From NCBI RefSeq assembly GCF_988242995.1, contig NZ_OZ547043.1: a stretch of DNA of 64,000 nt. One strand, 5' to 3'. Both the position numbers and the translations under genes were made by a program. Shown one piece after another: positions 880 to 6,962 of the stretch; positions within the stretch are counted from its first letter, which is position 1, and each line of letters opens with the position of its first letter. The notes beneath the pieces were generated by a model. That model worked only from the letters and a program-made list of their open reading frames with translations. It was not told the DNA's origin and did not search any database.

Positions 880-3800
880 ATGGACGTCAGTCGCAGACAA
901 TTTTTTAAAATCTGCGCGGGCGGTATGGCTGGAACAACGGTAGCGGCATTGGGCTTTGCCCCGAAGCAAGCACTGGCTCAGGCGCGAAACTATAAATTAT
1001 TACGCGCGAAAGAGATCCGTAACACCTGCACATACTGTTCCGTAGGTTGCGGGCTATTGATGTATAGCCTGGGTGATGGCGCGAAAAACGCCAGAGAAGC
1101 GATTTATCACATTGAAGGTGACCCGGATCATCCGGTAAGCCGTGGTGCGCTGTGCCCGAAAGGGGCCGGTTTGCTGGATTACGTCAACAGCGAAAACCGT
1201 CTGCGCTACCCGGAATATCGTGCGCCAGGTTCTGACAAATGGCAGCGCATTAGCTGGGATGAAGCATTCTCCCGTATTGCGAAGCTGATGAAAGCTGACC
1301 GTGACGCTAACTTTATTGAAAAGAACGAGCAGGGCGTAACGGTAAACCGTTGGCTTTCTACCGGTATGCTGTGTGCCTCCGGTGCCAGCAACGAAACCGG
1401 GATGCTGACTCAAAAATTTGCCCGCTCCCTCGGGATGCTGGCGGTAGACAACCAGGCGCGCGTCTGACACGGACCAACGGTAGCAAGTCTTGCTCCAACA
1501 TTTGGTCGCGGTGCGATGACCAACCACTGGGTGGATATCAAAAACGCTAACGTCGTAATGGTAATGGGCGGTAACGCTGCTGAAGCGCATCCCGTCGGTT
1601 TCCGCTGGGCGATGGAAGCGAAAAACAACAACGATGCAACCTTGATCGTTGTCGATCCCCGTTTTACGCGTACCGCTTCTGTAGCGGATATTTACGCACC
1701 TATTCGTTCCGGTACGGACATTACGTTCCTGTCTGGCGTTTTGCGCTACCTGATCGAAAACAACAAAATCAATGCCGAATACGTTAAGCATTACACCAAT
1801 GCCAGCCTGCTGGTGCGTGATGATTTTGCTTTCGAAGACGGTCTGTTCAGCGGCTACGACGCTGAAAAACGCCAGTACGATAAATCGTCCTGGAACTATC
1901 AGTTCGATGAAAACGGCTATGCGAAACGCGATGAAACACTGACTCATCCGCGCTGTGTGTGGAACTTGCTGAAAGAGCACGTTTCCCGCTACACGCCGGA
2001 CGTCGTTGAAAACATCTGCGGTACGCCAAAAGCAGACTTCCTGAAAGTGTGTGAAGTGCTGGCCTCCACCAGCGCGCCGGATCGCACAACCACCTTCCTG
2101 TACGCGCTGGGCTGGACGCAGCACACCGTGGGTGCGCAGAACATCCGCACCATGGCGATGATCCAATTGCTGCTCGGTAACATGGGTATGGCTGGTGGCG
2201 GCGTGAACGCATTGCGTGGTCACTCCAACATTCAGGGCCTGACCGACTTAGGTCTGCTCTCAACCAGCCTGCCGGGTTATCTGACGCTGCCGTCAGAAAA
2301 ACAGGTTGATTTGCAGTCGTATCTGGAAGCGAATACGCCGAAAGCGACGCTGGCTGATCAGGTGAACTACTGGAGCAACTATCCGAAGTTCTTCGTTAGC
2401 CTGATGAAATCTTTCTACGGTGATGCTGCACAGAAAGAGAACAACTGGGGCTATGACTGGCTGCCGAAGTGGGACCAGACCTACGACGTCATCAAGTATT
2501 TCAACATGATGGATGAAGGCAAAGTCACCGGTTATTTCTGCCAGGGCTTTAACCCGGTTGCGTCCTTCCCGGACAAAAACAAAGTGGTGAGCTGCCTGAG
2601 CAAGCTGAAGTACATGGTGGTTATCGATCCGCTGGTGACTGAAACCTCTACCTTCTGGCAGAACCACGGCGAGTCGAACGATGTCGATCCGGCGTCCATT
2701 CAGACTGAAGTATTCCGTCTGCCTTCGACCTGCTTTGCTGAAGAAGATGGTTCTATTGCTAACTCCGGTCGCTGGTTGCAGTGGCACTGGAAAGGTCAGG
2801 ACGCGCCGGGCGAAGCGCGTAACGACGGCGAAATTCTGGCGGGTATCTACCATCATCTGCGCGAGCTGTACCAGGCCGAAGGTGGTAAAGGCGTAGAACC
2901 GCTGATGAAGATGAGCTGGAACTACAAGCAGCCGCACGAACCGCAATCTGACGAAGTAGCTAAAGAGAACAACGGCTACGCGCTGGAAGATCTCTATGAT
3001 GCCAATGGCGTGCTGATTGCGAAGAAAGGTCAGTTGCTGAGTAGCTTTGCGCATCTGCGTGATGACGGTACAACCGCATCTTCTTGCTGGATCTACACCG
3101 GTAGCTGGACAGAGCAGGGCAACCAGATGGCTAACCGCGATAACTCCGACCCGTCCGGTCTGGGGAATACGCTGGGATGGGCCTGGGCGTGGCCGCTCAA
3201 CCGTCGCGTACTCTACAACCGTGCTTCGGCGGATATCAACGGTAAACCGTGGGATCCGAAACGGATGCTGATCCAGTGGAACGGCAGCAAGTGGACGGGT
3301 AACGATATTCCGGACTTCGGCAATGCCGCGCCAGGTACACCAACCGGACCGTTTATCATGCAGCCGGAAGGGATGGGACGCCTGTTTGCCATCAACAAAA
3401 TGGCGGAAGGTCCGTTCCCGGAACACTACGAGCCAATCGAAACGCCGCTGGGCACTAACCCGCTGCATCCGAACGTGGTGTCTAACCCGGTTGTTCGTCT
3501 GTATGAACAAGACGCGCTGCGGATGGGTAAAAAAGAGCAGTTCCCGTATGTGGGTACGACCTATCGTCTGACCGAGCACTTCCACACCTGGACCAAGCAC
3601 GCGTTGCTCAACGCAATTGCTCAGCCGGAACAGTTTGTGGAAATCAGCGAAACGCTGGCGGCGGCGAAAGGCATTAATAATGGCGATCGTGTCACTGTCT
3701 CAAGCAAGCGTGGCTTTATCCGCGCGGTGGCGGTGGTAACGCGCCGTCTGAAACCGCTGAATGTAAACGGTCAGCAGGTTGAAACGGTGGGTATTCCAAT

Positions 3801-3927
3801 CCACTGGGGCTTTGAGGGTGTCGCGCGTAAAGGTTATATCGCTAACACTCTGACGCCGAATGTCGGTGATGCAAACTCGCAAACGCCGGAATATAAAGCG
3901 TTCTTAGTCAACATCGAGAAGGCGTAA
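880..3927 (+). CDS. fdnG: Formate dehydrogenase-N alpha subunit (selenocysteine-containing molybdoenzyme); in-frame UGA at 1465-1467 read as Sec
   Basis: Track ORFs 880-1467 and 1516-3927 are in the same frame, separated only by TGA at 1465-1467. N-terminus has a twin-arginine motif (SRRQFFK). Total length 3048 nt equals 1015 codons plus stop, matching FdnG. Confidence 0.93.
1465..1510 (+). promoter_or_regulatory. Selenocysteine UGA codon plus putative downstream SECIS hairpin
   Basis: TGA at 1465-1467 followed by sequence with hairpin potential (agcaag-tc-cttgct core; ggacc/ggtc outer arms). Bacterial SECIS elements sit directly 3' of the UGA. Confidence 0.7.
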
Positions 3928-4824: not shown

Positions 4825-5470
4825 GTCGAAAATGATTGTGCGCACCAAATTTATTGATCGCGCCTGTCACTGGACCGTGGTGATTTGCTTCTTTCTGGTG
4901 GCGCTGTCCGGGATTTCGTTCTTCTTCCCGACGCTGCAATGGCTGACGCAAACCTTCGGTACGCCGCAGATGGGGCGCATTTTGCACCCGTTCTTCGGCA
5001 TTGCGATTTTCGTCGCGCTGATGTTTATGTTTGTGCGTTTTGTGCATCACAACATCCCGGATAAGAAAGATATTCCGTGGCTGTTGAACATTGTCGAAGT
5101 ATTAAAAGGCAATGAGCACAAAGTGGCGGATGTTGGTAAGTACAACGCCGGGCAAAAGATGATGTTCTGGTCGATCATGAGCATGATTTTCGTGCTGCTG
5201 GTGACCGGGGTGATTATCTGGCGTCCGTACTTTGCGCAGTACTTCCCGATGCAGGTTGTTCGCTACAGCCTGCTGATTCACGCGGCTGCGGGTATCATCC
5301 TGATCCACGCCATCCTGATCCATATGTATATGGCATTCTGGGTGAAAGGATCGATTAAAGGGATGATCGAAGGGAAGGTGAGCCGTCGCTGGGCGAAGAA
5401 ACACCATCCACGCTGGTATCGTGAAATCGAGAAGGCAGAAGCGAAAAAAGAGAGTGAAGAAGGGATATAA
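4817..5470 (+). CDS. fdnI: Formate dehydrogenase-N gamma subunit (cytochrome b556)
   Basis: Internal ATG of track ORF 4775-5470 ([12 protein letters not shown]...) gives 217 aa; start overlaps the fdnH stop by 8 nt; polytopic membrane protein with conserved His residues. Confidence 0.9.
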
Positions 5471-5490
5471 TCTCTTTTGAACTTTAAGCT

Positions 5491-5524
5491 GAAAATGGCG
5501 CTTTAAGAAGCGCCATTTTTTTTA
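5491..5524. terminator. Rho-independent, probably bidirectional terminator between fdnI and yddM
   Basis: Inverted repeat aaaatggcgc...gcgccatttt flanked by A-run and T-run (aaaatggcgctttaagaagcgccattttttttatt). Confidence 0.75.
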
Positions 5525-5806
5525 TTGCGTAACCAGACGGCGCAGTCGCGACACATCCACCGTTTTTTCTGCCTCTGCCAGACTCCAGGCGTTTTGCAGA
5601 TTCAGCCACATTTGCGGCGAACTGCCGATCACCACGGAAAGTTTAATCGCCATTTCTGGTGTCAAAGCTGCTTTTCCGGTCAGCAATCGGCTTGCCGTTG
5701 AGGGCGCAATTTCCATTGCTCTGGCAAACTCGCGCAGGCTGACATTAAGTTCGTCCAGTGATTCCTGAATAATGTCCCCCGGGCGGGGATGATTGGCCAT
5801 TTTCAT
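5522..5806 (-). CDS. yddM: HigA-like XRE-family helix-turn-helix protein (putative antitoxin or regulator)
   Basis: Track ORF 5522-5884; start placed at the internal Met ([20 protein letters not shown]...) to give 94 aa as recalled for YddM. Position between fdnI and adhP matches K-12 order. Confidence 0.75.
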
Positions 5807-5951
5807 TAGTGTCTTTACTCTCAGTAGCGTTCCTTCTCTGGGAACACTATCATTATTGTTCCTTCCTACGCAACAATAATCCATTTAGCCATTTCGTGTT
5901 GGAGAGTGTGCGATGCTGCGACCCGAACATGGCAGTCGCAGCAAAGGATTC

Positions 5952-6962
5952 TTAGCGGCGGAAATCAATCACCATACGGCCACGGATTTTGCCTTCTTCC
6001 ATCTCAGTAAAGATGGTGTTGATGTCCGCTAACGGACGCAGGGCGACTTTCGGCACCACTTTGCCTTCGGCGGCAAACTGGAAGGCTTCGGTGAGATCCT
6101 GGCGCGTGCCGACCAGCGAACCGACCACTTCAATACCATCCAGCACAAGGCGTGGGATGTCCAGGCTCATAGACTCCGGCGGCAGACCGACAGCCACAAC
6201 ACGACCGCCTGCTCGTACAGCATCAACCGCCGAGTTAAACGCAGCTTTAGCTACCGCTGTCACCACCGCAGCGTGAGCGCCACCGGTTTTTTCCTGCACA
6301 ATTTTGGCGGCGTCTTCAGTGCGTGAGTTAATCGCTAAAACAGCGCCCATTTCGGTTGCCAGTTTTAACTGCTCATCATTGACATCAATGGCGATCACTT
6401 TCGCGTTAAAGACATTCTTCGCGTATTGCAGGGCGAGGTTACCCAGACCGCCAAGACCGTAGATAGCAATCCACTGCCCTGGACGAATTTTTGACAGCTT
6501 AACGGCTTTGTAGGTGGTGACCCCCGCACAGGTAATGCTGCTGGCCGCCGCCGAGTCCAGAGCATCTGGCACTTTTACCGCGTAATCGGCGACCACGATG
6601 CACTCTTCCGCCATCCCGCCATCAACGCTGTATCCGGCATTTTTAACAGAACGGCAGAGGGTTTCGTTACCACTATTACAGTATTCGCAATGACCGCATC
6701 CTTCGTAAAACCACGCCACGCTGGCACGATCGCCTGGTTTTAATGAGGTGACACCTGGGCCAACTTCTGCCACCACACCAATACCTTCATGGCCCAGAAT
6801 TACGCCGGTTTTGTCACCAAAATCGCCATTCTTAACATGAAGATCGGTATGACATACACCACAACACTCCATTTTTAGCAGGGCTTCGCCATGTTTCAGT
6901 GAGCGCAGTGTTTTATCCGTAACGTCAACATGATGATCCTTCGTAACAACTGCAGCCTTCAT
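5952..6962 (-). CDS. adhP: Zinc-dependent alcohol dehydrogenase (propanol-preferring)
   Basis: Track ORF 5952-6992 with internal start [11 protein letters not shown] giving 336 aa; GHEGIGVV zinc-ADH motif and GLGGLG Rossmann motif. Confidence 0.9.

Follow-up and report, generated by a model that had tools for sequence, protein, structure and literature searches.

The orphan antitoxin gene yddM of Escherichia coli: a HigA that has lost its HigB partner

Why should a gene for what looks like a HigA-type antitoxin lie between fdnI and adhP with no toxin gene at its side? The window (the whole stretch of DNA analysed, 64,000 nucleotides of contig NZ_OZ547043.1) is a segment of the E. coli chromosome, with fdnG-fdnH-fdnI on its plus strand and yddM, adhP and maeA on its minus strand. 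The initial annotation, made from the sequence, had proposed that yddM is an orphan antitoxin, that the DNA upstream might hide a degraded toxin, and that translation might begin 26 codons earlier than the chosen start. The coordinates on which these proposals were built (an ORF at 5522-5884, 26 upstream codons, 145 bp to adhP) are accurate by the ORF list, the RefSeq start and the adhP stop: in all E. coli RefSeq records examined yddM starts at the ATG at 5806, giving a protein of 94 aa preceded by exactly 26 in-frame codons (5807-5884), and the adhP stop codon occupies 5952-5954, so that the yddM-adhP spacer, 5807-5951, is 145 bp long. The features of the locus are collected in Table 1.

Table 1. 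Features of the yddM locus, in window coordinates
Feature	Coordinates	Strand	Description	Basis
Terminator hairpin	5491..5520	.	between convergent fdnI and yddM, A and T runs on both sides	consensus scan
Longest minus-strand ORF	5522-5884	-	120 codons, ATG at 5884	ORF listing
yddM (higA), real coding sequence	5522..5806	-	94-aa HigA-family antitoxin with Xre-type HTH	
26 in-frame codons, apparently non-coding	5807..5884	-	leader plus promoter/operator	conservation across genera and free variation
22-nt leader	5807..5828	-	between last half-site and ATG, with weak SD-like GAGAG (5818-5822)	stands where 5'UTR and higB lie in toxin-bearing alleles
Putative HigA operator	5829..5862	-	three half-sites, GGAAC-N12-GTTCC-N7-GGAAC	conservation; binding inferred
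-10-like hexamer	5846..5851	-	GATAGT, between half-sites 1 and 2	conservation
Inverted repeat	5852..5880	.	perfect 9-bp repeat, ATTATTGTT / AACAATAAT, with 11-nt spacer 5861-5871	repeat search
-35-like box	5868..5873	-	TTGCGT; TTGCG invariant in related hig promoters	conservation
34-nt distal spacer	5881..5914	-	replaces ~88 nt of toxin-bearing allele	alignment
Hairpin after adhP	5914..5943	-	TGCTGCGAC/GTCGCAGCA	inverted-repeat search and alignments with toxin-bearing alleles

On its other side yddM faces fdnI across a short spacer (window 5471-5521), whose hairpin alone is reflected in the matches, all sub-threshold, returned by an Rfam search. This spacer shows copy-number polymorphism of a 178-bp unit consisting of two REP-like palindromes and a duplicated terminator hairpin: the window has no copy, strain VG1046 one and K-12 MG1655 two in tandem, and some strains carry an IS200 there instead of the unit. 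The listed fdnG ORF (window 1516-3927) is 803 aa long and starts well within the gene, which in related RefSeq records has 3048 nt (1016 codons); its shortness fits with the in-frame TGA codon, read as selenocysteine, for which formate dehydrogenase-N is known.

Membership of the HigA family and the missing toxin

YddM matches the equivalog profile TIGR02607, 'HigA family addiction module antitoxin', at 92.7 bits (E 9e-27; curated cut-off 47.7) over profile positions 1-80 of 81, the alignment beginning at residue 29 of the 120-aa form, that is, at residue 3 of the 94-aa form. Pfam HTH_3, with its Cro/C1-type helix-turn-helix fold, is matched at 38.9 bits (cut-off 23). The protein is 100% identical, over 94 of 94 residues, to PDB entries 2ICP and 2ICT, 'antitoxin HigA', both identified in a review as the YddM protein from E. 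coli CFT073 and classed there as a HigA-like antitoxin (PMC3968373); the next best PDB match is HigA of the Proteus vulgaris plasmid Rts1. Orthologues lie directly downstream of a HigB (RelE-fold) toxin in more than 20 species, and within E. coli one and the same protein, WP_000781370.1, is common to toxin-bearing and toxin-less strains. The proposal of a HigA-type antitoxin that stands alone, no intact toxin gene adjoining it, is thus borne out, by the TIGR02607 match and by the pairing of the identical protein with intact HigB in other strains; the profile search that the initial annotation had named as the means of overturning it puts YddM in the HigA toxin-antitoxin family and in no other family of regulators. 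A generic Xre-family regulator unconnected with toxin-antitoxin systems was considered and rejected in view of the direct evolutionary link to a HigB partner. We conclude that yddM is a genuine HigA antitoxin gene, and that its partner toxin gene, higB, has been lost in this strain. The identity of the gene was already known: RefSeq names the product a HigA-family antitoxin and the crystal structure was deposited as 'antitoxin HigA'.

The toxin itself was sought by tblastn at the most permissive settings (word size 2, no filters), with the E. coli chromosomal and Rts1 HigB proteins as queries. Only chance-level fragments were returned, the best having an E value of 0.16 (16 aa) in 5300-6200 and 0.39 in the whole 64-kb window. 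The degraded toxin suggested for 5807-5951 or its flanks therefore left no remnant detectable by tblastn with either HigB or by local alignment judged against shuffled sequences. Nor does the window hold a complete type II HigBA module, the alignments showing the toxin ORF to be missing. Since neither the spacer, nor its flanks, nor the 64-kb window contains HigB-like sequence, the locus is the antitoxin half only and not a toxin-antitoxin module.

Toxin-bearing alleles and the ancestry of the locus

Where the toxin went became visible from a census of 5426 complete E. coli genomes. Megablast of 5400-6100 revealed several length variants of the locus, in some of which yddM and adhP are separated by a gene annotated 'RelE/ParE family toxin'. 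Strain A10 has an intact ORF of 92 aa (WP_000605676.1) that ends one base into the yddM ATG, a stop/ATG overlap of 1 nt, and scores 64.4 bits with Pfam HigB-like_toxin and 112.6 bits with Rts1 HigB. Both the lhpl histidine and the C-terminal DYH are retained in it; we take them to correspond to catalytic residues of Rts1 HigB. Intact HigB is found directly upstream of an identical YddM in eight E. coli, A10 and seven others.

DNA of higB is present in 1331 of the 5426 genomes, and the toxin-less junction, scored as coverage of a 90-bp probe at >=80%, in 4002; roughly, the toxin-less state characterizes ~74% of complete E. coli genomes and the toxin is carried by about a quarter. The higB-bearing genomes were broken down by allele from 40 evenly spaced rows. 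In 22 of these higB is full length or nearly so, and the seven inspected from among them, like A10, are all annotated intact. In 16 the copy is 278 bp long and corresponds to the frameshift that is annotated for EC958 and ZH193, both of ST131; another has lost 9 bp in frame; and the last, O157:H7 TR01, retains only a 47-bp remnant.

The TR01 allele (L006 1402-1546) is a rare mosaic, seen in two genomes, in which a toxin-type distal spacer is followed by the window-type palindrome ATTATTGTTGCGTAGGAAGGAACAATAAT, the terminal ~50 nt of higB and then yddM of the toxin type. In total length its spacer equals that of the window, and typical O157:H7 strains have the window allele.

The direction of change was read from a scan with YddM of one genome per species, which gave 41 loci. 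A full-length HigB adjoins the YddM orthologue on its upstream side in E. albertii, cryptic Escherichia, about 12 Citrobacter species, Cedecea, Buttiauxella, Enterobacter, Pluralibacter, Chimaeribacter and Erwinia; fdnI usually lies downstream of these orthologues, and in Escherichia and some Citrobacter adhP lies upstream. Because the orthologue follows HigB next to fdnI across genera, higBA was evidently the original occupant of the fdnI-adhP locus in Escherichia and its relatives, and the toxin-less state is derived. Decay has occurred independently in five further species or strains, higA staying intact each time: higB has an internal deletion in Citrobacter sp. FP75, a frameshift in C. 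portucalensis, and a frameshift and a stop in Xenorhabdus lircayensis, and what is left of HigB is residues 64-92 only in X. khoisanae and the last 19 residues only in Chimaeribacter californicus.

Aligned with toxin-bearing alleles, the window spacer is seen to comprise the adhP hairpin, a 34-nt segment (5914-5881), a conserved core (5880-5829) and a 22-nt leader (5828-5807). It is certain that some 300 nt, the 5'UTR together with higB, have been replaced by 22 nt in the window. Local alignment of the 22-nt and 34-nt segments with the toxin-bearing allele, on both strands, gave similarity no better than that of shuffled sequences. The core of the window differs from that of A10 (L004) at 10 of 45 positions, all but one of them unconstrained spacer positions, and yddM differs by ~2%. 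As a whole, the toxin-less and toxin-bearing spacers of E. coli are much more divergent than the flanking genes, with two segments unalignable, and the spacer of E. albertii is almost the same as that of toxin-bearing E. coli; this pattern suggests that the toxin-less spacer was imported from an unsampled lineage or arose by a complex rearrangement, rather than by simple deletion. The 10 toxin-bearing E. coli and 28 related species compared yielded no toxin-bearing allele with a window-type promoter.

One alignment had been read as showing a deletion between copies of ATGAA at the second ATG of higB and at the ATG of yddM. We withdrew this base-level junction because CACT(A/G)ATG could equally be the 3' end of higB and because the segments match no better than shuffles. 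Deletion by microhomology would be consistent with the repeated ATGAA, but the 22 nt beside it resemble the 5'UTR and the 3' end of higB no more than chance allows.

In toxin-bearing alleles the adhP hairpin is followed by CTGTTTTG, with a GTTTTG run after the hairpin; the window has ATCGCACAC instead, and the U-rich tail is missing. As a result, transcripts of adhP might run on into yddM in strains without the toxin. A simple consensus scan called the hairpin at 5914-5943 a terminator in neither allele type.

The DNA upstream of yddM

If the 26 codons conceal no toxin, do they extend the antitoxin? Comparison with related loci points to another origin. About 12 nt before the higB ATG these loci carry a core pattern, TTGCG-N6-GGAACA-N10-TGTTCC-N7-GGAAC, which is intact in the window at 5873-5829. 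The three half-sites are present in 21 of 28 related loci (in Escherichia, Citrobacter, Buttiauxella, Xenorhabdus, Chimaeribacter and Erwinia), and the half-sites together with the TTGCG box in 18 of the 28, most of the others being near-variants. In the window the three-half-site pattern is unique in 64 kb, with 0 expected from shuffles. At the position of GATAGT, which is separated from TTGCGT by 16 nt, other genera have TATACT, TATGAT or GATAAT. A consensus scan of the spacer found no sigma-70 promoter in either allele type; the constitutive RpoD promoters listed from genomic SELEX include one for yddM, positioned at adhP-yddM and given the label 'Internal Promoter' (Shimada 2014, PMC3946193).

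The variation of these codons among nine toxin-less alleles is of the kind seen in non-coding DNA. One extension codon reads R, S, D or G; an inversion turns CCVG into CSFL; and the frame is broken by a 29-bp deletion in K_EC180, where yddM is intact, and by a 1-bp deletion in W444. No Shine-Dalgarno sequence precedes the ATG at 5884, and the one upstream of 5806 is weak, a GAGAG at a distance of 11 nt; all toxin-bearing relatives have the start codon of yddM overlapping the stop codon of the toxin gene. Because the extension varies like non-coding DNA, lacks a Shine-Dalgarno sequence at 5884, and is followed by an ATG that overlaps the toxin stop in relatives, the 94-aa start at 5806 is, by this comparison, the real one. 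The upstream start envisaged at the outset gives way to a simpler description: the 26 codons appear to be the retained promoter/operator of the ancestral hig operon, regulatory DNA that varies freely, indels included, and not an N-terminus.

We therefore regard it as highly improbable that a 120-aa product is made from 5884, or that the spacer encodes an unrecognised toxin such as that of a 48-aa plus-strand ORF (5809-5955). The 26 codons are open in 7 of the 9 toxin-less alleles and the 48-aa ORF does exist on the opposite strand; an open run of 26 codons has, however, a chance of (61/64)^26, or ~0.29, and is unremarkable. Against the longer product, the extension DNA is promoter/operator in all toxin-bearing relatives, its variation is non-synonymous, with 1-bp and 29-bp indels and an inversion, the HigA profile starts at residue 29, and the crystallised protein has 94 aa. 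The 48-aa ORF was rejected as a candidate toxin: the same indels break it, and it has neither a Pfam signal nor similarity to toxins.

The inversion just mentioned involves the perfect inverted repeat of Table 1. Its 11-nt spacer is inverted (GCGTAGGAAGG -> CCTTCCTACGC) in 1062 of the 5426 E. coli genomes (~20%), as seen in ST2350, with removal of the TTGCG box and conversion of the first GGAAC half-site to GCAAC. The orientation found in the window is also that of toxin-bearing relatives, so that the inverted form is derived. In the one inverted-spacer allele examined yddM is intact and, as ~20% of E. coli carry the inversion, autoregulation through the full operator cannot be essential everywhere.

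Retention of yddM and its likely function

Taken together, these observations make it very probable that yddM is the HigA half of an ancestral chromosomal higB-higA operon, from which higB and its 5'UTR have gone and the core promoter/operator and higA have been kept, the codons upstream of yddM being regulatory. That the survivor is still of use is suggested by its polymorphism. Among 20 yddM alleles, hand-picked from spread lists, there are 24 segregating sites, of which 23 are synonymous, none is missense and one is nonsense; from these figures yddM is evidently still under purifying selection. The nine toxin-less alleles have 10 synonymous sites, no missense and one nonsense (P ~7e-6 under neutrality, 76% of sites being nonsynonymous), a sample into which recombination with toxin-bearing lineages could import synonymous variants already filtered by selection. 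The nonsense site belongs to strain W444 (L016 745-1029), in which codon 74 is changed from TGG to TAG and the operator has a 1-bp deletion; with yddM a pseudogene in this strain, the orphan can evidently be lost.

The most likely role for YddM is that of an autorepressing HigA dimer that works without a toxin. The protein would be made from the ATG at 5806 and form a dimer; the dimers would occupy the GGAAC/GTTCC repeats on either side of the -10 region and likely transcription start, and YddM so bound would repress the transcription of its own gene, in the manner of toxin-free Rts1 HigA. The Rts1 protein, an obligate dimer in which each subunit has a complete HTH, alone represses Phig ~211-fold via two operators overlapping the -35 and -10 (PMC12266136). 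It is by analogy with this system that we infer autorepression by YddM through its putative operator. YddM should also still be able to neutralise the HigB of toxin-bearing strains were it reintroduced, because its sequence is identical to that of HigA in strains with intact HigB.

That identity underlies a different explanation of retention, that the orphan is kept as an immunity or anti-addiction protein to neutralise HigB arriving on a plasmid or by recombination from toxin-bearing E. coli. Anti-addiction by orphan antitoxins is established for CcdA and has been discussed for orphans generally (PMC7354431), and 99 Escherichia plasmids carry HigB-family toxins. However, no plasmid HigB relative exceeds 56.5% identity to the chromosomal HigB (an apparent 100% match is a 4.9-Mb record, a chromosome), cross-neutralisation is doubtful with YddM only 40% identical to Rts1 HigA, and an incoming chromosomal higB would normally bring its own higA. 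We consider this explanation improbable.

Somewhat better placed, though still doubtful, is the idea that YddM has been domesticated, being kept as a regulator of host genes (tsr, motility and chemotaxis) and acting mainly as an ordinary transcription factor. The purifying selection on toxin-less alleles fits this idea. YddM is also counted among uncharacterised K-12 transcription factors with reported ChIP-exo binding sites (PMC6237786); CRISPRi of yddM lowered motility and chemotaxis genes, with tsr cited as a binding target (bioRxiv 10.64898/2025.12.20.695731); and the Keio yddM deletion is hypersusceptible to epetraborole, a phenotype recorded without complementation (PMC12457515). But the published evidence is high-throughput and uncomplemented, and the K-12 tsr-btsT intergenic region contains no GGAAC/GTTCC pair even when one mismatch per half-site is allowed, so that a YddM regulon beyond its own promoter is unproven. 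Such a role would in any case add to autoregulation and does not exclude it.

A fuller version, to which we give a similarly low probability, has the orphan HigA domesticated, its amino-acid sequence unaltered while most E. coli lineages radiated, for a host role in chemotaxis, motility or stress regulation or in immunity against HigB, as its promoter was remodelled stepwise. In this scheme the toxin and 5'UTR would have been replaced by an unrelated 22-nt leader, and the distal spacer replaced also; later, the palindrome-mediated 11-nt inversion would have removed the ancestral -35 box and one half-site in ~20% of genomes.

Comparison with known systems

The analysis clarifies for annotators and for users of the K-12 'orphan transcription factor' sets that YddM is the surviving half of an ancestral higBA operon. 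The gene's identity being already in RefSeq and the PDB, what is new here is the description of the toxin loss across the E. coli population and in comparison with related species. The locus offers a natural series for toxin-antitoxin decay (toxin intact, frameshifted, partly deleted and cleanly deleted, and operator inverted), useful for asking whether leftover antitoxins are retained for a reason.

The closest well-described relative is HigB-HigA of the Proteus vulgaris plasmid Rts1 (PDB 4MCT/4MCX). The ancestral yddM locus resembles it in having the toxin gene first, with its stop overlapping the antitoxin ATG, in the folds of the two proteins, and in palindromic operators over the promoter, putative in the case of YddM; the likeness of the two HigB proteins is that given above for A10, and YddM scores 70 bits against Rts1 HigA, with 40% identity over 86 aligned residues. 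It differs in being chromosomal and vertically inherited next to fdnI, with the toxin absent in the window, whereas Rts1 is plasmid-borne. The Rts1 operator, GTATTACA-N5-TGTAATAC, is also unlike the GGAAC/GTTCC half-sites at yddM, as expected with protein identity of only 40%, and YddM (94 aa) lacks the ~10-residue C-terminal tail of Rts1 HigA (104 aa). From YddM of E. coli CFT073, whose 94-aa sequence is identical, there is no difference at the protein level, and any difference could lie only in the genomic surroundings of the gene.

Among orphan type II antitoxins of decayed modules, yddM follows the common course of toxin lost first and antitoxin kept, with parallels in Citrobacter, Xenorhabdus, Chimaeribacter and the ST131 frameshift. 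It stands apart in the cleanness of the loss, which has left no recognisable toxin codons, and in its age, sufficient for the toxin-less state to have become that of the species majority with no amino-acid change in the antitoxin. YbaQ of E. coli K-12 (PDB 2EBY; E 5.6e-9 as a PDB match) is likewise a small, solitary HigA/VapI-like Xre-HTH protein of the same superfamily, and it was studied with YddM as an uncharacterised transcription factor (PMC6237786); it is, however, a distinct and more distant paralogue at another locus.
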